The notes beneath the pieces are model-generated. The model made no database searches. It saw nothing but the letters and a program-made list of their open reading frames with translations, and had not been told where the DNA came from. Below, in pieces: positions 26,165-48,106 of a stretch of 64,000 nt of DNA. Position 1 is the first letter of the stretch. Every line of letters begins with the position of its first letter. The stretch is from contig CBDCWP010000021.1 in the NCBI GenBank assembly GCA_965223505.1, forward strand, positions 288,001 through 352,000, written 5' to 3'. Source of the DNA: Planctomycetota bacterium. GTDB taxonomy: Bacteria; Planctomycetota; PLA2; JAEUHO01. The position numbers and the translations under genes are program-made.

Positions 26165-28639
<2,475 letters not shown>

Positions 28640-28659
28640 TCACTGCAGCGATCTGCCTC

Positions 28660-28992
28660 TCATGCACCTCGCCCGTCCGTCTCCGGAACGAACTGCAGTC
28701 CGATGAGGACCACGTCCGGCAGGGCGACGCGCAACACGTCGAGAAGCCTGTCCTTGTGGAAGTGTGTGAGCTCGTCACGGAGCACCGACGATCGAACGCC
28801 GATCTCCAGAACACCTCCTTCGAGCCGTCGCAGCTCGGTTGCTTCGAGCCAAGCCGGTTCGCAAACATTCTCCCAGGCGCGGGCCACCGCGGTTCCGATG
28901 CGTTGCGAGGGGACGCCCATGTCACGCAGGACCTTCGAAACGAGGTCCCCTGCTCGCTGGGACTTCCGCACGGAGCGCCGGTCGCCCATCAC
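28660..28992 (-). CDS. dciA: DciA (DUF721) helicase-loading protein
   Basis: 110 aa; AWENV...LEGGVLEIGVRSSVLRDEL pattern; located between dnaN and gyrB. Confidence 0.8.
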   Translation of the reverse strand: MMGDRRSVRKSQRAGDLVSKVLRDMGVPSQRIGTAVARAWENVCEPAWLEATELRRLEGGVLEIGVRSSVLRDELTHFHKDRLLDVLRVALPDVVLIGLQFVPETDGRGA

Positions 28993-28994
28993 AC

Positions 28995-30092
28995 CTACTC
29001 CAGCGCAATCGGCATGATCACGTAGGTGTAGTCGTCGTGGTCGCTGAGCTTCCCCGGCGACTTGGCGTTCGTGAACTCGAACCGGATCTCGCTCGCCGGC
29101 TCCATGACCTTCAACGCGTCCTGGAGGAACAACGGATTGAACCCCACCGTCTGGGGCTGGCCGTCGTATTCGACCGGGACCTCCACCTTGGCCTCGCCGA
29201 CGTCGCGGGCGCGGCTGCGAATCACGAGCGTCTGCGGTTCGATGTGGAGCTCCACGGAGAGCGCGTCCCGGGTGGTCAGCAACGACGCGCGGCGAAGCCC
29301 CGAGGCGAAGTCGGCCGCCGTCGATCGAAACTCGTGATCGCTCTGCGCCGGAATGACGCCGTCCAACGAGGGGAACGACCCGTCGATCAAACGCGAGATG
29401 ATCAGGACGCCGCCCACACGGAACATGGCCTGCCGATCGGCAATCGCCAGCTCGATCTCCGCGTTGTCGCCTGAAACACGCTCGAGGAGCTGCAAGCCCT
29501 TGGGACCGACGATCGCCTGCACATCGCCGGATTTCCTTCCGAGGTCACCCGTCGCGCGGGCCAGGCGCCGCCCGTCCGTCGCCACCATTTGGATGTTCCT
29601 GCCGGAAATCTGGAACTGCACGCCGTGCAAGGCGAACCGGCCCGCCTCCTTGGCAGTAGCGAACGCCGTCCGTCGAATCATGTTTCGAAGGAGCTCCGCC
29701 GAGATCGTCGTTGCGCCCTTGTCGGGAAAGAACGGCAGCTGCGGGAACTCTTCGATCGACTCGCCCCGTACGTGAAAGTGCGAACGGCCGGTGTCCACCG
29801 AGAGTCCGCCGTCCTTCTCGAAGAGGGTCGTGGTTTCCTCGTCGATCTCGCGGACGATGGCCAGGAACCGCGCGGCCGAAATCACCAAGGCTCCGGACTC
29901 GGCGACGTCGGCATCAGGAATGTGATGACGAATGCCGACGTCGAGATCCGTTGCTTCGAGACTGAGTCCGGTCGTCGCATCCGCACGAATGGCCAGACAC
30001 TCGAGAATCGGCTTCGGACTCTTGTTGGCAGCAACGCTCGCTACGTAGGTCGTAGCCTCCAAGAGGACTTGTGTCGGAAGCGAAACTCTCAT
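28995..30092 (-). CDS. dnaN: DNA polymerase III beta clamp
   Basis: KPILE, LEATDLDVGI, MVATDGRRLA, SRLIDGSFP, GFNPLFL and YVIMPI motifs; 365 aa. Confidence 0.96.
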   Translation of the reverse strand: MRVSLPTQVLLEATTYVASVAANKSPKPILECLAIRADATTGLSLEATDLDVGIRHHIPDADVAESGALVISAARFLAIVREIDEETTTLFEKDGGLSVDTGRSHFHVRGESIEEFPQLPFFPDKGATTISAELLRNMIRRTAFATAKEAGRFALHGVQFQISGRNIQMVATDGRRLARATGDLGRKSGDVQAIVGPKGLQLLERVSGDNAEIELAIADRQAMFRVGGVLIISRLIDGSFPSLDGVIPAQSDHEFRSTAADFASGLRRASLLTTRDALSVELHIEPQTLVIRSRARDVGEAKVEVPVEYDGQPQTVGFNPLFLQDALKVMEPASEIRFEFTNAKSPGKLSDHDDYTYVIMPIALE

Positions 30093-30594
30093 GGTGTTTC
30101 CGTTCGTTCGAAGCCTTCAGACCGAACCCTGACGAGGGTTCCTTTCTATGAAGAAGAAAGACTGAATTCTGAATTGGGTAGTAGCCGAATTGGGTCGTGT
30201 CGCTTTGCGCAAACCCGCGTGGGCTGGGTCTCGGAAGTTTTTTCTCTGAAAGGGTTTACGGCACTCCGCATACGGCTCACGCGCCCGCCGGGGTCGACCC
30301 AATATTGTACGAATGCCGGTGGTCGCATCGAGGGATTTCAGCGCTCCGAAACCCGGCGAATCGTGGCTGGGAACCGCCGTTCTTGGCCTCTTCAAAACGC
30401 CGGCACCGGCACTGCCCGAGCTTTCCCACGCGAGACCACCGAAATGCGACATGGCCGCCCGAGCCCACGTCCCCCGGCGCTTGTGGAATGTCCTTGAACG
30501 GGGGACATAACTCCCCACGGCAAAGGGGGTTATAGGCATCTCGGTGTTGTGGAGAAGCGCGTGGAATCGCGCTTCGGGGTTGGGCGTGGGTGTC
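30093..30594. other. Candidate replication origin (oriC) in the dnaA-dnaN intergenic region
   Basis: 502-bp non-coding gap with lower GC; AT-rich tract at about 30140-30180; DnaA-box-like TGTGGAGAA (30548-30556) and TGTGGAATG (30482-30490). Confidence 0.65.
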
Positions 30595-32073
30595 CTAGGG
30601 GCCGGACGTCTCTCCGGGGCGGCTCCAGCCCGCCCCCAGGCGGTCCAGATGACGCTCGATGGCGGCCGCGAAACGCGGCTCCCGGTCGACCCGATCCTGC
30701 ATCTTCCGTACGGCGTAGAGGACCGTGGAGTGGTCCCGTCCGCCGAAGAAGTCACCGATCTCGTCCAACGAGTGCGACGTCGCGCGCCGGATGAGGAACA
30801 TCGCGGTCTGCCGCGGCTCCGAAACGCTGCGGCCGCGCTTCTTCGACCTCAGATCGGCCGGCTTGACCTGGTGGTGCGCGCACACGAGCTGGACGACCTT
30901 CTCGATCGTGACGGCATGCCGTCCGGAGTGCACGGCAGGCTCAAGCGCCTCTTTCGCGAGCTCGAGATCGATGCCCGTTCCCTTGACCTGCGAACAGGCC
31001 TGAACGCTGACCAGCGCGCCCTCGAGCTCGCGGATGTTGTTCCTGAAGTTGCTCGCGATGTACTCGACCACGTCGTTCGGGATCCGCGTCCCCTGGAGCT
31101 CCGCCTTGCGGTGGATGATCGCCATGCGCGTTTCCATTTCCGGCTGCTCGAGCTGCGAGACGAGGCCCCACTGGAAACGCGAGACCAACCGGTCCTCGAG
31201 ATTGGGGATCTCGGACGGCGCCGCATCGCTGGAAACGACGATCTGGCGGTTGCTCTGGTAGAGCTGGTTGAACGTGTGGAAGAACTCTTCCTGGGTGCGC
31301 TCCTTGCCCTGAAGAAAGTGGATGTCGTCGATGACGAGCAGGTGCACCGTCCGGAACCGATCGCGGAATGCCTGGTGGTCAGCGCGCTTGATCGCCGACA
31401 CGAATTCGTTGATGAACTCTTCGCACGAGAGGAAGCACACGCGATCGGACGGAAAGTTCTTCATGAACTGCCGGCAGGCGGCGTGCAGGAGATGCGTCTT
31501 TCCGAGCCCGACGGCGCCGTGGATGAACAACGGGTTGTACGCACGGCCCGGCTTCTCGGCCACGGCCTGCGCCGCCGCGTAGGCGACGCTGTTCGACGGG
31601 CCCTTGATGAAGTTCTCGAACGTATAGTGCTCGTTGAGCTGCAGCGGAATGTCGTCGGGACCCGATCCGACGAAGGGCGCCGGCTGATAGCCGGTCGGCT
31701 TCTTCTCCGCCGGTGGGGGCGGCGTGGTCGGGGCATGCGTGGGCGGCGGGGGCATGGCTGCGGCGTCCGACTCCGGGCCCGCTTCCGGCTCTTTGGCTTC
31801 GGCGACGGTCAGGTTGACCTGCACCGGAGCGTGATCGAGCTCGGACGCGACCTGAGTGATCGGCGTCATGAAATGCTTGCGCAGCCACTCGAGGTAGAAC
31901 CGATTCGGCACCCCGAGGACGAGACGGTTGTCGTGCCAGCGCAGAACGGACGTTCGTTCGAACCACGTCGTGTACTGCTGGCGCGAAACCCGCCGCCGCA
32001 ACGCGTCGTGGAGCTCCTGTGTTCTCGGGTGGCTGCTCACAGAACTGCCCGAAGTTCGATCACCGTGTTCCAT
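30595..32073 (-). CDS. dnaA: Chromosomal replication initiator DnaA
   Basis: YTFENFI.G.SN, YNPLFIHGAVGLGKTHL, LLVIDDIHF, QEEFFHTFN, RLVSRF, NIRELEGAL, GGRDHSTV. Confidence 0.98.
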   Translation of the reverse strand: MEHGDRTSGSSVSSHPRTQELHDALRRRVSRQQYTTWFERTSVLRWHDNRLVLGVPNRFYLEWLRKHFMTPITQVASELDHAPVQVNLTVAEAKEPEAGPESDAAAMPPPPTHAPTTPPPPAEKKPTGYQPAPFVGSGPDDIPLQLNEHYTFENFIKGPSNSVAYAAAQAVAEKPGRAYNPLFIHGAVGLGKTHLLHAACRQFMKNFPSDRVCFLSCEEFINEFVSAIKRADHQAFRDRFRTVHLLVIDDIHFLQGKERTQEEFFHTFNQLYQSNRQIVVSSDAAPSEIPNLEDRLVSRFQWGLVSQLEQPEMETRMAIIHRKAELQGTRIPNDVVEYIASNFRNNIRELEGALVSVQACSQVKGTGIDLELAKEALEPAVHSGRHAVTIEKVVQLVCAHHQVKPADLRSKKRGRSVSEPRQTAMFLIRRATSHSLDEIGDFFGGRDHSTVLYAVRKMQDRVDREPRFAAAIERHLDRLGAGWSRPGETSGP

Positions 32074-36068: not shown

Positions 36069-37688
36069 GTGCGCGTCGAACACCTCGCTCCGGACGACGG
36101 CCCCGCCATGGGGGCTTTCGCGCTCGCGCTGCGTAGCGGCGAAGGAGCGGCGCTGCGATTCCTCGACGCGCCCCCGCGCGACGACGCGACGTGGCGGGCG
36201 GCGCTCGACGAGGCGGCCGCGTGCGTGCGTCCGCTTCCACCGTCCTTGCTCGAGGCCGTCCTCGCCCGTCAAACGACGCTCGGCGCGGGGGCGCTTGCCG
36301 AGGCCAACGCGCGCCGGTTGACCGAGCCCGGCGTCCTGGCGGTTGTCACCGGCCAGCAGCCGGGGTTGTTCGGCGGGCCGCTGCTCACGTTCCACAAGGT
36401 GGCCGGCGCGATCCACCTTGCGCGCCGTCTTCACGCCCTCGGCGGCCCCGCGGTCATTCCCGTGTTCTGGTGCGCATCGGAAGACCATGACTTCGAAGAG
36501 GCCAACCGCGCCGCGGTTCTGGACCGCAAGGGCGAAGCGCGGTCGATGCGCGTCGACATCGAGGGCGACGGTCGGAGCATCTCGGACATCGACGCGCCGA
36601 AGGCAGCCGTCGACGCGGCGCTCGCAGAGCTCGAGGCATCGTTGCCCGACACCGAGCGCGGACGCGCCGCACTCGCGTTGGCGCGCTACGACGAGGGCGA
36701 CGACTTCGCGACCTGGACGGCGAAGACCCTGCTGCGCGTCTTCGGCGACAGTGGGCTCGTCGTCATCGAGCCGCGTGACCTCACCGCCGAGGTGGGTCCC
36801 TCGTGGGGTTGGCTGCTCGACCACGCCGAGACGATCTGCCAAGCCGTCGCGGTTCGCGGGGCCGAGCTGCGGGCGCACGACCTACCCGCGCCGCTGTTGC
36901 CGGGTGACGCTGACACCCCCTTGTTCTTCCGCGAGCGCGCAGGCTCGCGGCGCTTGCGCGTCGGCGTGGCAAGCGAGGCCGTGACCCTGAGGGACCAGCC
37001 GTCCTCGCTCTCCCGCGCGCAACTGCGCGACGTGCTTCTGAGCGAGCCCGAGCGAGGGAGCGGCAACGTCATCGGCCGGGTCTTCGTGCAGAACCGGCTG
37101 CTACCGGTCCTCGCCTACATCGCGGGTCCCACCGAGATCGCGTATCACGCGCAGCTTCGAGCGGCGCACGAGGCCGTGGGCATGCGGGCGCCATTGGCGC
37201 TTCCCCGTCCGGAAGGCACGTGGGTGGATGGAAAGAGCGCCGCGGCGGCGGACGCATTCGATCTCTCGATCGCGCAGGTGCTGCGCGGCGTGACGCCGGC
37301 CGTGCCCGACGACGACGTCGACGCGGCGCTCGCCGAGGCGCGCGAGACATGGCTCTCTCGGTGGCCGGCGCCGGTCGAGGGTCTCGCCGCGTCCGGTGGT
37401 CAGGGGGCCGAGGCGCTCGAGCGGATGCGGACGCGCCTGCTCGCGGCCTGGGACAAGAACGCGCCCCGTGTGCGTGACGCCTTCCATCGGGATCGCGGTG
37501 TGGGCCGCGATCGCTGGCACCGGCTCTCCACCGCGCTCTTCCCGCTCGGCGCGCGCCAGGAGCGGGTGCTGTCGCCGCTCTCGTTCATCGCCCGGTACGG
37601 CGTCGAGCCGATCCGGGAAGGGCTTCTGTCCCTCGACCCGCTCGCACCTGTTCACACCGTCGTTCGGCTGGAGAATGCTGCGTCATGA
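36069..37688 (+). CDS. bshC: Bacillithiol biosynthesis cysteine-adding enzyme
   Basis: VVTGQQPGLFGGPL..HK, VFWCASEDHDFEE, YIAGPTEIAY and QER motifs; 539 aa. Confidence 0.9.
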   Translation: MRVEHLAPDDGPAMGAFALALRSGEGAALRFLDAPPRDDATWRAALDEAAACVRPLPPSLLEAVLARQTTLGAGALAEANARRLTEPGVLAVVTGQQPGLFGGPLLTFHKVAGAIHLARRLHALGGPAVIPVFWCASEDHDFEEANRAAVLDRKGEARSMRVDIEGDGRSISDIDAPKAAVDAALAELEASLPDTERGRAALALARYDEGDDFATWTAKTLLRVFGDSGLVVIEPRDLTAEVGPSWGWLLDHAETICQAVAVRGAELRAHDLPAPLLPGDADTPLFFRERAGSRRLRVGVASEAVTLRDQPSSLSRAQLRDVLLSEPERGSGNVIGRVFVQNRLLPVLAYIAGPTEIAYHAQLRAAHEAVGMRAPLALPRPEGTWVDGKSAAAADAFDLSIAQVLRGVTPAVPDDDVDAALAEARETWLSRWPAPVEGLAASGGQGAEALERMRTRLLAAWDKNAPRVRDAFHRDRGVGRDRWHRLSTALFPLGARQERVLSPLSFIARYGVEPIREGLLSLDPLAPVHTVVRLENAAS

Positions 37689-38425
37689 GCGATGCCCATC
37701 CGTCCATCGACATCCTGGCGTTCGGTCCGCACCCGGACGACGTCGAGCTGTGCGCGGGCGGGCTCGTGCTCAAGGCGCGGGCGCAGGGCCGAAGCGTCGT
37801 CGTCGTCGACATGACGCGCGGCGAGGCCGGCACGCGCGGCACGCCCGAGACCCGCGAGCAGGAATCGGCGGCGGCATCGAAGCTCATGGAGCTGCACGCG
37901 CGCGAGAACCTGGGCCTTCCGGATGCGCGCGTCCAGGTCGACCTGCCGTCGCTCGAGAAGGTGACGACCGCGATCCGGCGCTGGCGGCCCAAGGTCGTCC
38001 TGTCGCCGTGCCTGCAGGACCGCCATCCCGATCACATCGCCTGTGCCGAGCTCGTGCGGCGTGCGTACTACGGGGCGACGATCGCAAAGGGACTCGGGAG
38101 CGAGCACGCCCCCCACCGGCCCGACGCGCTCATCCAGTACTTCGGACACCTCGAGCCGACACCTTCATTCGTCGTCGACATCTCCGACGTCTGGGAACAG
38201 CGGCTGGAGCTCGCGAAGTGCTACGCGTCCCAGCTGGACGTGAACGAGACGCTCCCGCGAACCAACATCGCGTCGCCTGACTTCATGCAACGCGTCGAAG
38301 CCCGTTACGCGTACTGGGGCGCCAAGATCGGCGCCAGGTACGGCGAGCCGTTCCTCGTCGACCGTCTCATCGCGCTCGACGATCCGGTCGAGACGTTTCG
38401 CAAGCGTGGTTGGCAGGTGCTGTGA
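37685..38425 (+). CDS. bshB1: GlcNAc-malate deacetylase (PIG-L family)
   Basis: PHPDDVEL, DMTRGEAGTRG, DRHPDH, YASQ and YGEPF; ATGA overlap with bshC. Confidence 0.9.
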   Translation: MSDAHPSIDILAFGPHPDDVELCAGGLVLKARAQGRSVVVVDMTRGEAGTRGTPETREQESAAASKLMELHARENLGLPDARVQVDLPSLEKVTTAIRRWRPKVVLSPCLQDRHPDHIACAELVRRAYYGATIAKGLGSEHAPHRPDALIQYFGHLEPTPSFVVDISDVWEQRLELAKCYASQLDVNETLPRTNIASPDFMQRVEARYAYWGAKIGARYGEPFLVDRLIALDDPVETFRKRGWQVL

Positions 38426-39543
38426 AGCTCGGCGTCGTCTGCTATCCGACCTTCGGCGGGTCCGGTGTCGTCGCGACGGAGCTGGGTCTCGGACTGGCGC
38501 AGCGCGGCCACGAGGTGCATTTGTTCTCGTACGCGCCCCCCGCCCGGCTCGACTCGTTCGACGAGCACATTCACATGCACGAGGTCGAGGTCTCGTCGTA
38601 TCCGCTCTTCAAGTACCCGCCGTACGACATCGCCTTGGCGTCGCGTCTCGCCGAGGTCGTCGAGGAGGCCGATCTCGACTTCGTGCACGTTCACTACGCG
38701 ATCCCGCACACGCTCGCGGCGCTGCTTGTGAAGGACATCCTCCGTCCGCGGCCCGTACCCGTCGTTACGACGTTGCACGGAACCGACATCACCGTGGTCG
38801 GGCAGGAGCGCTCGTACGAGCGCGTCACACGCTACGCGATCATGAACTCCGACATCGTCACGTCGGTGTCCGAGTACCTGCGCGCCGAGACCGAGCGCAT
38901 GTTCGACATCGACCGCGAGATCGCCGTCATCCCGAACTTCATCGACACCGAGCGGTTCCAGCCCGGCGGCGAACGTGTTCGCGGGTGTTTCTCCAAGGGC
39001 GCCGAGCGTGTACTCATGCACGTGAGCAACTTCCGGCCGGTCAAGCGAGCGGTGCGCGTCGTTGACGCGTTCGCCGAGCTCGCCGCCGACGTGCCGTCGA
39101 CGCTGGTGATGGTCGGCGACGGTCCCGAGCGCGCGCGTTGCGAGGCGCGGGTTCGCAAGCACGGGCTGCGTGATCGCGTGCGGTTCCTCGGCGCCCAGTC
39201 CGGTGTCGAACAGCTGCTGCCGGCCGCCGACGTCTTCCTGCTGCCGTCCGAATACGAGTCCTTCGGTCTCGCGGCGCTGGAGGCGATGGCGTGCGGCGTC
39301 GTGCCGATCGTGACGAACGCCGGCGGGCTTCCGGAGGTGATCCGGCACGATGTGGACGGTCTGCTCGTCCCCGACCCGCAGGTGGGCCAGCTCGGGTCGA
39401 TGACCCGCGATCTGTTGCTCGACGAAGAACGCCTGGCGCGAATGAAGGCGGCGGCGCGCGCGGCGGCGGTCGAGCGCTTCGATCGCCCCCGAATCGTCTC
39501 GCAGTACGAGTCCCTCTACGAGACGCTGTTGGCGGCACGCTGA
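38422..39543 (+). CDS. bshA: N-acetyl-alpha-D-glucosaminyl L-malate synthase
   Basis: CYPTFGGSGVVATELG, HVHYAIPH, TTLHGTDIT, HVSNFRPVKR and ESFGLAALEAM; GTGA overlap with bshB1. Confidence 0.94.
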   Translation: MKLGVVCYPTFGGSGVVATELGLGLAQRGHEVHLFSYAPPARLDSFDEHIHMHEVEVSSYPLFKYPPYDIALASRLAEVVEEADLDFVHVHYAIPHTLAALLVKDILRPRPVPVVTTLHGTDITVVGQERSYERVTRYAIMNSDIVTSVSEYLRAETERMFDIDREIAVIPNFIDTERFQPGGERVRGCFSKGAERVLMHVSNFRPVKRAVRVVDAFAELAADVPSTLVMVGDGPERARCEARVRKHGLRDRVRFLGAQSGVEQLLPAADVFLLPSEYESFGLAALEAMACGVVPIVTNAGGLPEVIRHDVDGLLVPDPQVGQLGSMTRDLLLDEERLARMKAAARAAAVERFDRPRIVSQYESLYETLLAAR

Positions 39544-44816: not shown

Positions 44817-45497
44817 CTACGTCCGCGGCTCGACCGGCCGCACCAACGCGAGGGTCAAGAGCAACAGCCCCGCGGTGGCGGCGGAAGTATAGCCCAGCGT
44901 GCTGAGTGCTCCTCCGGTGTCCCGAGGGCCCGGCAGCCAGACGGCAATGGCCGCTCCAACCTTGCCGCCGCCGAGAGTGCTCCATGGCAGGTGGCCGATG
45001 ACCCACAGCGCGAGGACGGCGATCGTCGTCGCGACGGCGTTCCACCTCGTACCGAGCAGCACGACCCACGCCCCCACCATGCCGCATGCACATATACTTG
45101 TAGTTAGCAAGTAATGAAGCGAAGGAAGGCTCACGGCGCCTGTGGCGCTTGTGAGCAGCGCGACGCCGGTGGCGGCGACCACGCCGGCAGCCGTGCCCCC
45201 GACCCAGCGCCCAAGCACGCGGCCGAAGGGGCCTGGCCGCGCGGCATCTGCCGCGAGCGCAAATCCAGAGTCGCCGTCTTCCTCTTGCAGGCGTCCCAGA
45301 ACGGCGAGTGTCACGAGAACGCCGAACAGCTGGCTCGTGCCGACCACGAGGTCGCGCGCTTGGTCCTCCGCACGTTCGATGGCGAGGATCGCAAGCGTAG
45401 TCGCGAACCACCCGGCGAAAGCCCCCACGCCGAGCAGCAGCCATGCGAGCGCGCTCGTGACAGCCTCTCGAAGCGTCGACCTTGCGTATGCCCACAT
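44817..45497 (-). CDS. Multi-TM membrane protein (ABC-2 permease-like)
   Basis: About 6 hydrophobic segments from MWAYARSTLREA; RP..FGRVLGRWVG pattern. Confidence 0.6.
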   Translation of the reverse strand: MWAYARSTLREAVTSALAWLLLGVGAFAGWFATTLAILAIERAEDQARDLVVGTSQLFGVLVTLAVLGRLQEEDGDSGFALAADAARPGPFGRVLGRWVGGTAAGVVAATGVALLTSATGAVSLPSLHYLLTTSICACGMVGAWVVLLGTRWNAVATTIAVLALWVIGHLPWSTLGGGKVGAAIAVWLPGPRDTGGALSTLGYTSAATAGLLLLTLALVRPVEPRT

Positions 45498-45540
45498 GAG
45501 TTCGATGTACCAGCGAACACCGACCAGGTCGACGGGCGAT

Positions 45541-45556
45541 TGTTCCCCGGGGAACA
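45541..45556. promoter_or_regulatory. parS-like 16-bp palindrome, copy 1 (TGTTCCCCGGGGAACA)
   Basis: Perfect palindrome with parS-type TGTT..AACA ends, about 235 bp upstream of parB. Confidence 0.75.
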
Positions 45557-45577
45557 TTCGCCGGCATGATTCGACGA

Positions 45578-45593
45578 TGTTCCCCGGGGAACA
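45578..45593. promoter_or_regulatory. parS-like 16-bp palindrome, copy 2 (TGTTCCCCGGGGAACA)
   Basis: Identical copy starting 37 bp after copy 1; extends to the 20-bp palindrome GATGTT...AACATC. Confidence 0.75.
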
Positions 45594-45791
45594 TCCGGCC
45601 GCCGTCCCAGCCGATCTATCACGGTGGGGGGGGTTGCGGGAGCCTGGAAGGGAAGGGACCTGAGCGTGGGTCCGTGGCGCAGCCCTTGTGGCTGCCCAAC
45701 CGTGCAGTTGCGCAGCCAGCACACAGTCGGGGAGTTGGCCTACATTGGGTTGGCGACCGACGACGACGTCTTTGAGACCGGAGCAAGAACC

Positions 45792-46682
45792 GTGAAAGCG
45801 AAGCGATTGGGTAGGGGCCTGAGCGGCCTCATTCACCGTACCGAGAAGCCGGCCTCCGGCGAGAAGGTCGTCACGCCGCCGACGCCCAGGCCGGAACGAT
45901 ACCGTGGCCCCGTGCGTGAGCTCTCGCCGGATGAGATCCGTCCGAACCCGTTTCAGCCGCGGGCGAGCTTCGACGTCGGCGAACTGGAGGAGTTGAAGCA
46001 GTCGATCGCCGAGCACGGCATCCTGCAGCCCCTCGCGGTCCGCACGGCGGAGCCCGGCTACGAGGTCATCGCCGGGGAGCGTCGGTTGCGAGCCGCCCGC
46101 GAGCTCGGCCTCGCCAAGGTGCCGGTGCTCGTGCGCGCCGCCACCGACGAAGAGATGCAGACGCTGGCGCTGGTCGAGAACGTGCAGCGTGTCGATCTCA
46201 ATCCGATCGAAAAGGCGCGGGCCCTGAAGGCGATGATGCGCAACTTCAGCTTGACGCAAGAAGACGTAGCCGAGCGCGTTGGCAAGGCGAGAACGACGAT
46301 CGCCAATCTCGTCCGCATCCTCGACTTGCCCGACGTGATCCAGTCAATGGTGGAGGACGGTCAGCTCTCCGCCGCGCACGCGCGGGCGATTCTCCAGGCC
46401 GAGGGCGTCGAGCGTCGGGTGAAGCTCGCCGAGCAGGCCGTGCGAGCCGGCTGGTCCGTTCGCGAAGTCGAGCGACGTGCACGCAAGGGGCCGACGGTGG
46501 GGGCCCGTCGCAAGAGGGGTGTCGAGGCGGACCCCTATGTCGCGGACCTCGAGAACCGCTTGCGGCAGGCCCTGAGCACGCGGGTCAAGATCCGCAAGAA
46601 GCGCGAAGGCGGCACGATCGAGGTGAGCTACCACAACGCCGATGATCTGGATCGGTTGCTCGAGATCCTCGACGCCAGCTAG
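45792..46682 (+). CDS. parB: Chromosome partitioning protein ParB/Spo0J
   Basis: LGRGL ParA-binding peptide, PNPFQPR, GILQP, IAGERR (CTP-binding), ENVQR.DLNPIE, HTH and SVREVE; GGAG RBS before GTG 45792. Confidence 0.95.
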   Translation: MKAKRLGRGLSGLIHRTEKPASGEKVVTPPTPRPERYRGPVRELSPDEIRPNPFQPRASFDVGELEELKQSIAEHGILQPLAVRTAEPGYEVIAGERRLRAARELGLAKVPVLVRAATDEEMQTLALVENVQRVDLNPIEKARALKAMMRNFSLTQEDVAERVGKARTTIANLVRILDLPDVIQSMVEDGQLSAAHARAILQAEGVERRVKLAEQAVRAGWSVREVERRARKGPTVGARRKRGVEADPYVADLENRLRQALSTRVKIRKKREGGTIEVSYHNADDLDRLLEILDAS

Positions 46683-46735
46683 CGCGCTCCTGGGGTGATG
46701 CTAACAGAGTACGAACAGAAGCCAGGGGAAGCCGA

Positions 46736-48106
46736 TTATTTGCCGCCCCCGTCGTCCTTCGGATCCAAGGGGTCGCCGTCTTCGGCGCCGTCGTCCTCGT
46801 CGCCGCCCGCGTCGTTCTTGGGCTCCGGCTTCTCCGGCTCTTCGACGCGCAGCGCGTCACGCTCGAGCGTGGCGAGCTTCTCTTCCTTCGCGGTCACCTC
46901 GGCCTTGTGCTCGGAGGGCGCGTTCGTCGTCACGAGCGCGCCGTCGCGATAGACGAGCACCTTGACGATCTCGACGGGCACCTGCAAGAAGTCGAGCACG
47001 CCGCGCAGCTCGCCGGTGTCGCTGCTGACCTCGGGATCCGACCGCCAGATCTTGGACGACCAGATGCGATCGAGCGTCTCCAGCGACGCATCGTCGATGA
47101 GCTTGCCGACGGGCGTGAAGTCGTAGTCGAGGCTCGGGGACGGCCGACGGCAAACGATGAACTGGGACGGGTGGTCGTACTCGGTCGCGTCGCCGTGCCA
47201 GGCGGACACGATGCCTCGATCGTGGGGGATGCGGTTGCGGGACTCCTCGAGCAGCAAGCTGCCCTGATCCTTGTCCTTGGTGAACTCGATGTGCTGGGTG
47301 GCGTTGAAGGCCTCGGCGCCGCGCGTCGTCTGCGCCCCTGCGCGCAGCCAGTGCTCGAACGGCTCGACGTCGTCGCCCTGCTCGCGCTTCATGAAGAACG
47401 CCGTGCCGTCGTACTCGCCCGCGACAGCTCGCTCGAGAAACGCCTTCGTCCAGTTGGGCGCATCCGTTGCGTACAGGCGCAGGTGCAGATCACCCCGCGT
47501 GGTGCGAAGCACGACGGTCTCGGCGCCGTCCGGCTCCTTGGGCTTGGGCAGATGCTCCTGCTCCCAGGCCCGGTTCTCCTCGAGCCAGTGGATGAACTGG
47601 CGTGTCACGGTGGGGAACCCCGCCGGCTTGAAGTTGGCCCAGTTGAGCTGGAAGTCCGGGAAGTCGTCACGAATCTCCGTTAGGTGTTTGATCGCCTTCT
47701 CGTAGTGGGGCGAGCGCTTGTCGAAATCGAGCGTCGTCTTCATCGACAGGATGTGATCGGCGAGCGTGCGCGCGAGGCGCCAGCGCACGTGCGGCTCGAG
47801 GGCGTCCGGCAGCGTCTTCGCCTGCTCTTCGAGGAACTTCTCGAGGTTGCGGACATAGCGCTCGCGCTGTTCGCCGTAGATGCCGTACGGATCCTGGAAG
47901 ATCGGATCCTGCATCTGGTCCGGCTCGTACTTCTCGCGCAGCGCCGCGTACTTGTCCCAGCGCTCGGCAGCCGCCTCTTCTTCGATCTCCTGGAACAGGA
48001 GAAAGCCCACGACGCCGGCCGCGACGACGACCAGGCCGATCGCGGTCCACTTGATCTTCTTGGCTTGGGAGGCCTTGGCCTCCGCCGCGCCCTGCTCGGA
48101 CTGCAT
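46736..48106 (-). CDS. Membrane-anchored protein with a divergent cyclophilin-type PPIase domain
   Basis: N-terminal TM; VVLRTTRGDLHLRLY..DAP....FL..A..GEYDGT.F, H.RGIVSA and SQFIV...P.LD..FTPVGK. Confidence 0.7.
   Translation of the reverse strand: MQSEQGAAEAKASQAKKIKWTAIGLVVVAAGVVGFLLFQEIEEEAAAERWDKYAALREKYEPDQMQDPIFQDPYGIYGEQRERYVRNLEKFLEEQAKTLPDALEPHVRWRLARTLADHILSMKTTLDFDKRSPHYEKAIKHLTEIRDDFPDFQLNWANFKPAGFPTVTRQFIHWLEENRAWEQEHLPKPKEPDGAETVVLRTTRGDLHLRLYATDAPNWTKAFLERAVAGEYDGTAFFMKREQGDDVEPFEHWLRAGAQTTRGAEAFNATQHIEFTKDKDQGSLLLEESRNRIPHDRGIVSAWHGDATEYDHPSQFIVCRRPSPSLDYDFTPVGKLIDDASLETLDRIWSSKIWRSDPEVSSDTGELRGVLDFLQVPVEIVKVLVYRDGALVTTNAPSEHKAEVTAKEEKLATLERDALRVEEPEKPEPKNDAGGDEDDGAEDGDPLDPKDDGGGK

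Follow-up and report, generated by a model that had tools for sequence, protein, structure and literature searches.

Organization of the parB locus

The window, i.e. the whole 64-kb stretch of DNA analysed here, carries a parB gene of 296 aa on the plus strand (45792..46682), which is separated from a membrane-protein gene on the minus strand by a divergent intergenic region of 294 bp (45498..45791, unstranded). Two parS-like palindromes with the same 16-mer, TGTTCCCCGGGGAACA, which the initial annotation had described, are located in this region, at 45541..45556 and 45578..45593 (both unstranded), 37 bp apart from start to start and 199-251 bp upstream of parB. The word has a guanine at position 1 and cytosines at positions 4 and 6 and is shared upstream of parB in relatives, and the symmetry of the second copy reaches 20 bp (GATG...CATC). 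These two exact copies were also the only ones found in the window when up to three mismatches were allowed; shuffled sequences gave a mean of 0.22 matches and 2 of 100 shuffles reached two. A consensus scan of positions 45400-46800 found neither a sigma-70-like promoter nor a terminator.

Comparison of TGTTCCCCGGGGAACA with parS showed that 12 of the 16 positions agree and that both sites depart from the canonical sequence, TGTTNCACGTGAAACA, at symmetric position 6. The bases read at positions 1 and 6 (G1 and C6) confirmed that the outer guanine of parS and the inner cytosine of NBS, the site of Noc, are combined in one site.

The two window copies were the sole TGTTCCCCGGGGAACA words at zero or one mismatch in the whole assembly (5,154,780 bases in 44 contigs). 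The canonical pattern TGTT[CT]CACGTG[GA]AACA had no match at zero or one mismatch in this assembly, which is 92% complete, so that further sites could be missing; when two mismatches were allowed, the pattern returned four scattered non-palindromic words and both TGTTCCCCGGGGAACA sites. A standard parS scan thus misses the site, as had been predicted. A restriction-site effect as the origin of the CCCGGG core was rejected because the conserved unit is the entire 16-mer at a single locus.

The origin-region markers gyrB (26165-28612), dnaN (28995-30092) and dnaA (30595-32073) lie on the minus strand at 26165..32073, and the cumulative GC-skew minimum of the contig (C21) is found at 320-330 kb, i.e. 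at 32-42 kb of the window. The genome scan located TGTTCCCCGGGGAACA only at parB, 13.5 kb from dnaA, and canonical sites near the origin were absent; two 16-bp palindromic sites are clustered near oriC, in line with what the initial annotation had anticipated. Another contig carries a weaker second gene with a DnaA ATPase domain (G000:C42:122105-122578, 83.7 bits). Three adjoining genes at 36069-39543 of the window have BshC, PIG-L deacetylase (BshB-like) and GT4 glycosyltransferase (BshA-like) domains; together they resemble a complete pathway of the bacillithiol type, here in a planctomycete.

Features of the ParB protein

The start of parB at GTG 45792 was favoured because homologues align from residue 1 and a GGAG lies 8 nt upstream; the gene caller had placed the start at the alternative GTG 45702 (326 aa). 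The protein matches the Pfam families ParB_N (PF02195, 3.8e-31), HTH_ParB (PF17762, 5.4e-34) and ParB_C (PF23552, 1.3e-11), the last being the dimerisation domain, and its translation contains the GERRLRAA and VENVQR motifs of the N-terminal CTPase domain of ParB. It thus has the three domains of a chromosomal ParB, and no other gene of the assembly encodes ParB_N together with a full HTH_ParB. The nearest homologues that bear a name are labelled as Planctomycetota MAGs. A parA gene immediately upstream of parB in one operon is the usual arrangement, although not a universal one. Here the upstream neighbour is the divergent membrane-protein gene, and ParA-like AAA_31 genes are located on contig C30, other than the parB contig.

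The best PDB match in our phmmer search was Caulobacter ParB (6t1f_A, PDB 6T1F; E 1.2e-47), to which the alignment is ungapped. This alignment pairs R167, L173, D178 and A195 with positions 173, 179, 184 and 201, the residues of the RTAG code, so that the assignment of R167 and A195 as the equivalents of R173 and G201, and the resulting code R-L-D-A, held. The recognition helix GKARTTIAN contains R167 and T168, the codons of which are at 46290..46295, and the codons of A194, A195 and H196 (GCC GCG CAC) are at 46371..46379, all on the plus strand. A195 lies in LSAAHAR and is encoded by GCG at 46374-46376, where the equivalent position of Caulobacter ParB has a glycine.

Site classes in the Planctomycetota order

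The collection contains 40 species genomes of the order, 38 of them with a ParB at E <= 1e-30. We compared 43 parB loci, 27 from the window's own family, 11 from the sister family and five from elsewhere in the phylum, and found one to five palindromes within a few hundred bases upstream at nearly all of them. The class GTTyCCCGGGrAAC was present at 13 of the 43 loci, window included, the class GACTCCCGGGAGTC at 7, the canonical class GTTyCACGTGrAAC at 15 and the class TTTCCACGTGGAAA at 4; two loci (L020 and L032) combined a CCC half with a CAC half and two had no site within the fetched stretch.

Genome-wide scans showed that each of the 40 genomes has one to five palindromes of one class adjoining parB, with two exceptions: one site of G013 lies on a small contig nearby, and G001, which belongs to the GACTCCCGGGAGTC class, has one extra site, with a CACGTG core, on another contig. 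Symmetric CCCGGG and symmetric CACGTG sites (GTT...AAC type) occurred together in none of the 40 genomes, and ten lone asymmetric matches elsewhere in them look like background. When 401 genomes sampled across the phylum were scanned, clustered CCCGGG sites were confined to the window's family (G000 and 8 of the 16 sampled); isolated CCCGGG matches were found in 22 other genomes of the phylum, a number close to the about 20 genomes in which the reversed control pattern matched.

Two to five copies of the GACTCCCGGGAGTC class lie beside parB in 7/7 genomes of two genera, and the rest of the order lacks this class (L017 in G001, L018 in G004, L021 in G022, L023 in G017 and L042-L044 in G042-G044). 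The TGTT/AACA arms are altered too in this class, the first helix of its ParBs is altered to GKARTSISN and residue 195 is a serine, an alanine or a glycine.

The TTTCCACGTGGAAA class, in the sister family (L036 in G034, L039 in G032, L045 in G031 and L047 in G028), has the site CTTTCCACGTGGAAAG, in which G1 is replaced by a thymine. The Arg173 equivalent is lost at all four loci (Ser, Ala, Pro and Pro), and L048 (G030) also has a proline at this position, with no site found. The loss of the Arg173 equivalent together with G1 is the clearest case of site classes following the DNA-contact residues of ParB.

Half-and-half sites, which read CCC on one side and CAC on the other, are repeated next to parB or clustered at L020 (G012), L032 (G019) and, in a Chloroflexota genome, G471:C33:8848-10816. 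The ParB of L020 has Ala195 and that of L032 has Ser195. Such sites accompanying Ala or Ser ParBs look like evolutionary intermediates or like the outcome of dual reading.

Co-variation of ParB residues 195 and 168 with the site

Comparison of residue 195 with the site core showed an alanine at 12, a serine at five and a glycine at three (L031, L033 and L043) of the 20 loci with a CCCGGG core, and a glycine at 18 and an alanine at one (L022) of the 19 loci with a CACGTG core. The Gly195 ParBs of L031 and L033 are accompanied by three or four CCCGGG sites. The ParB of L022, which reads GGAQAR and has three canonical CACGTG sites, is the nearest relative of the window ParB in the tree (support 91/95). 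All five Planctomycetota loci from outside the order keep CACGTG. The initial annotation had suggested surveying AHAR ParBs for CCCGGG sites; the expected association was seen as a non-Gly residue with CCCGGG at 17/20 loci, but it failed in the other direction, since Ala also occurs with canonical sites, at L022 and in three genomes described below (G429, G519 and G476). Ala195 is neither necessary nor sufficient for CCCGGG sites, and residue 195 appears to track the site core largely, not strictly. In the family ParB tree, the basal branching of which is without resolution, the CCCGGG label needs four changes, and well-supported branches make at least three of these unavoidable.

The 120 nearest homologues in a large protein collection have an alanine (88), a serine (21) or a glycine (11) at position 195. 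GAHAR is the common form among them and AAHAR is found in the window ParB alone, which is therefore not identical to the recurrent SGAHAR form, as it reads SAAHAR. As background only, an alignment search on universal ParB motifs gave 80 metagenome ParBs (38-49% identity), which are distant ParBs and not family members; 73 have Gly, four Ser and three Ala. The seven non-Gly loci were without an informative nearby site, except for L129 (Ser, canonical parS). A search of genome contigs for related loci with the single window ParB protein found no relative.

Position 4 of the site was compared with residue 168 at the 13 GTT...CCCGGG loci. It is a cytosine at seven loci, all seven with Thr168, and a thymine at six, none with Thr168 (five Ala and one Pro); the window pairs Thr168 with C4. 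Residues 168, 194 and 196 co-vary as well. The column-wise mutual information between ParB columns and the site core was dominated by shared ancestry and pointed to residue 168.

CCCGGG sites in Chloroflexota and other lineages

We scanned GTDB, with one genome per species, for pairs of CCCGGG-type sites spaced 10-40 bp apart. The scan returned 60 loci: seven from the window family, each adjacent to parB, 26 from as many Chloroflexota MAGs, 24 from two Terriglobia MAGs and three singles from other lineages. No ParB was found within 1.5 kb of the Chloroflexota site pairs. At three of the four Chloroflexota loci examined (L136-L195, e.g. L157:1501-1551), TGTTTCCCGGGAAACA is in tandem between a conserved gene for a 413-aa NYN-domain protein and a methyltransferase gene.

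In five Chloroflexota genomes that were searched, the main ParB was xSGAHxR in 5/5, i.e. with an alanine at the equivalent of position 195, at 41-44% identity to the window ParB, and each genome had two or three GTTTCCCGGGAAAC sites, canonical sites being absent. The class sample of 101 genomes contained 91 with a ParB, of which 85 have Gly and six Ala. Three of the six Ala ParBs are of the form xGAHxR and occur with CCCGGG sites among the matches listed; again among the matches listed, G471 has one CCCGGG and two half-and-half sites, the other three Ala ParBs (SEAHAR and SEAQAR; G429, G519 and G476) have a single canonical site each, and at least 44 genomes with a Gly ParB keep CACGTG. The seven GAH ParBs cluster together in the FastTree phylogeny (support 0.996), and their clade joins SEGHAR/TEGHAR ParBs of genomes with canonical sites through a weak parent node (0.416); a separate clade (1.0) unites the three SEA ParBs. 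Taken together, the sequences suggest that a Chloroflexota clade pairs xGAHxR ParBs with TGTTTCCCGGGAAACA sites independently of Planctomycetota, and without canonical parS.

A dnaA gene was found in four Chloroflexota genomes. A distance of 18 kb separates the site pair from dnaA in two of them (G418 and G419). In the other two, G420 and G422, the sites do not share a contig with dnaA and lie 0.68 Mb or more away from any contig end. The site pair of G419 is 474 kb from parB, and G418 and G419 each have a third site about 1 kb from a ParB-like paralogue (L201 and L202).

The 24 Terriglobia loci (L137-L188), from two MAG records, consist of a dispersed repeat of about 110 bp with two TGTTCCCCGGGGAACA words, usually 35 bp apart, and conserved flanks (TTTGTACGTACA...GTACAAAA...CATTTTGCA). 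This repeat could be a mobile element, a REP-like element or a dispersed set of ParB/Noc-like sites. A Polyangiaceae MAG record (L193) has five tandem GGTTyCCCGGGGAACn words with a period of 41 bp and no ParB within 1.5 kb.

Comparison with known ParB and Noc systems

According to the parts of PMC7383237 on which we draw, R173 and G201 are invariant in ParB orthologues, G201 being absolutely conserved. In the Caulobacter structure described there, Arg173 bonds G1 and residue 201 faces base -6, with which G201 makes no base-specific contact, and the arginine of Noc at 201 bonds G-6. In the same parts, parS-specific variants tolerate C, S or T at position 201, dual-specificity variants carry mostly T or S, and scanning showed that binding to parS, or to both sites, persists with small polar residues at 201; alanine is not mentioned in these parts.

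The window system has in common with Caulobacter ParB-parS (TGTTTCACGTGAAACA; PDB 6T1F; PMC7383237) the same three domains, the GERRxR and ENVQR motifs, a palindrome frame of 16 bp whose outer arms, TGTT/AACA, are identical, retention of the Arg173 equivalent and the origin-proximal placement of the sites. It differs from it by its CCCGGG core instead of CACGTG, by Ala in place of Gly, and by having two sites only, directly upstream of an orphan parB with the parA-like genes elsewhere. With Noc-NBS of Firmicutes (TATTTCCCGGGAAATA; PDB 6Y93; PMC7383237) it shares C6 in the CCCGGG core and a protein change at the same position, 201. However, the window ParB has R, L, D and A where the Noc code is Q173, K179, K184 and R201 (QKKR), its site has an outer guanine rather than an adenine, and its genome has two sites rather than many dispersed ones and no second ParB paralogue. 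The inner cytosine would thus need to be accommodated without an arginine.

Engineered intermediates between ParB and Noc offer another comparison (PMC7383237). Laboratory variants with R173 and an altered residue 201 prefer parS/NBS hybrid sites, and dual-specificity variants with Ser or Thr201 bind both sites, just as natural Ser195 and Ala195 ParBs accompany hybrid or half-and-half sites. The laboratory hybrids combine Arg201 with a permissive lysine at 179 or 184, whereas the natural forms have Ala or Ser201, Leu179 and Asp or Glu184. A search of a collection of open-access papers found no description of these site strings or of Planctomycetota or Chloroflexota parS variants.

The ParB/parS pairs used as orthogonal labels generally come from multi-replicon genomes or from ParB/Noc paralogues. 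The divergence of the window type lies instead between orthologous single chromosomal systems of related genera; like the toolboxes (ParB-INT/ANCHOR type, mParSpot and ParSite; PMC11109969 and PMC11798528), it involves related ParBs with distinct palindromes.

Interpretation

We consider it probable, from the comparison of sequences, that the palindromes are the chromosomal parS of the single ParB and that the lineage moved to the CCCGGG core with the helices of ParB changing along with the sites. TGTTCCCCGGGGAACA is taken as the putative cognate parS because it has the form of parS, is unique in the genome, is located at the origin, is found upstream of parB across genera and belongs to a set of site classes that follow the contact residues. 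We infer from this that ParB binds the two palindromes, and the direction and strictness of its preference and the role of each residue are deduced in the same way. The architecture would be that of an ordinary ParB-parS system, and the new variant would reside in its specificity elements. The initial annotation had proposed a co-evolved pair with new specificity; the lineage-specific cognate-like sites and the co-variation of non-Gly residues with C6 in two phyla agree with this proposal, but not with its one-residue form, in which A195 reads the inner cytosine.

The two palindromes would serve as nucleation and clamp-loading sites of the single ParB, adjoining parB near oriC. The lineage would have shifted from the near-universal TGTTNCACGTGNAACA to the CCCGGG core, with ParB changing in both DNA-reading helices: in the second, a small residue followed by Ala-His at 194-196 would replace x-Gly-His, and the first would gain Thr168. 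The methyl group of Ala195 may shift or relax the preference at base pair 6 from A:T toward C:G, without the arginine of Noc, as the alanine side chain would meet the thymine methyl of A6:T-6 and not the guanine of C6:G-6. Fine adjustment at position 4 of the site would fall to residue 168. Such a change could have spread because the parS copies number only one to five and all adjoin parB, which allows the site to change jointly with the protein. A preference that is shifted or relaxed, and that depends also on residues 194, 196 and 168, seems likeliest because Ala is neither necessary nor sufficient, because the recurrent form is Gly-Ala-His and because half-and-half sites exist; a clean single-residue switch is less likely. 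The half-and-half sites (L020, L032 and G471) suggest that position 6 is read in a relaxed or dual manner, and fit less well with a specificity that is both new and strict.

A broader reading, which we put forward only tentatively, is that this one order contains at least four mutually selective ParB-parS pairs (CACGTG, CCCGGG, GACTCCCGGGAGTC and TTTCCACGTGGAAA) with a code other than that of Noc, and that C6 re-evolved in Chloroflexota. The code would then consist of a small residue followed by Ala-His at 200-202 for C6, of Thr174 for C4 and of the loss of Arg173 for T1. The half-and-half sites with Ser or Ala ParBs would be living intermediates, and the split would have become possible through a centromere reduced to a few sites next to parB.

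Neutral drift of the sites is rather unlikely as an explanation. It would require that any ParB tolerates C6, that the sequence of two sites drifted and that the ParB substitutions are unrelated lineage markers, as the exceptions in both directions between residue 195 and the core, the very low copy number of the sites and the missing base-specific contact of G201 in the Caulobacter structure (PMC7383237) would allow. However, CACGTG is kept in at least 44 Chloroflexota genomes with a Gly ParB and at 5/5 Planctomycetota loci outside the order, the change from glycine to alanine at one position goes with the change from adenine to cytosine at one base in two phyla, and both half-sites and all copies are altered in concert.

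A strict one-residue code is unlikely: Ala195 alone would confer an orthogonal specificity for the inner cytosine, and the pair would ignore canonical parS. The non-Gly residues accompanying C6 at 17/20 CCCGGG-core loci and in the Chloroflexota GAH clade fit it, as does the lack of a canonical site in the genomes with CCCGGG sites. The one-residue match claimed in the initial annotation is nevertheless contradicted by Ala with canonical sites in L022 and in the Chloroflexota SEA ParBs (G429, G519 and G476), by Gly with CCCGGG in L031, L033 and L043, and by the Ala and Ser ParBs at half-and-half sites (L020, L032 and G471); the binding of parS or of both sites by variants with small polar residues at 201 (PMC7383237) also argues against it.

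That the palindromes serve not as a centromere but as operators for some other regulator, or only in the autoregulation of parB, is very improbable. Such a role would suit their position within a divergent promoter region, and that of the Chloroflexota pair between the NYN-domain and methyltransferase genes, far from parB; it does not account for the 12/16 positions in agreement with parS, the genome without any other parS, the proximity of the sites to the origin, or the way site classes follow the DNA-contact residues of ParB, including the loss of the Arg167 equivalent with G1.

The codon at 46374-46376 was compared with Logan contigs of three runs of one study, which may be the source sample. 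Both sites and the Ala codon were recovered with 0 differences at a depth of 2-7, in pieces covering 45480-45834 and 45815-46700 (X1), 46030-46700 (X2) and 46339-46489 (X3). A sequencing error is made less likely by the 88/120 nearest homologues that also have Ala at the 195 equivalent; that the Ala codon or the sites are artefacts of assembly or sequencing, for which the low coverage of this MAG (depth 2-7) could speak, is scarcely credible given this recurrence, the identity of independently built contigs from the three runs and the presence of the identical site in other genera.

Implications

Few DNA motifs of bacteria are as conserved as parS. Scans with canonical parS will return "no parS" for the lineages described here, and compact orthogonal DNA tags would be gained if the pairs are selective. 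The planctomycete and Chloroflexota genomes provide natural counter-examples to the invariance of R173 and G201, with matching site changes alongside. Apparent intermediates are found among these natural cases, and a second phylum offers a convergent repeat. The question of how a protein can change along with a DNA target that is essential, without loss of function, has so far been addressed by mutational scanning, and may now be tested directly on these natural pairs.
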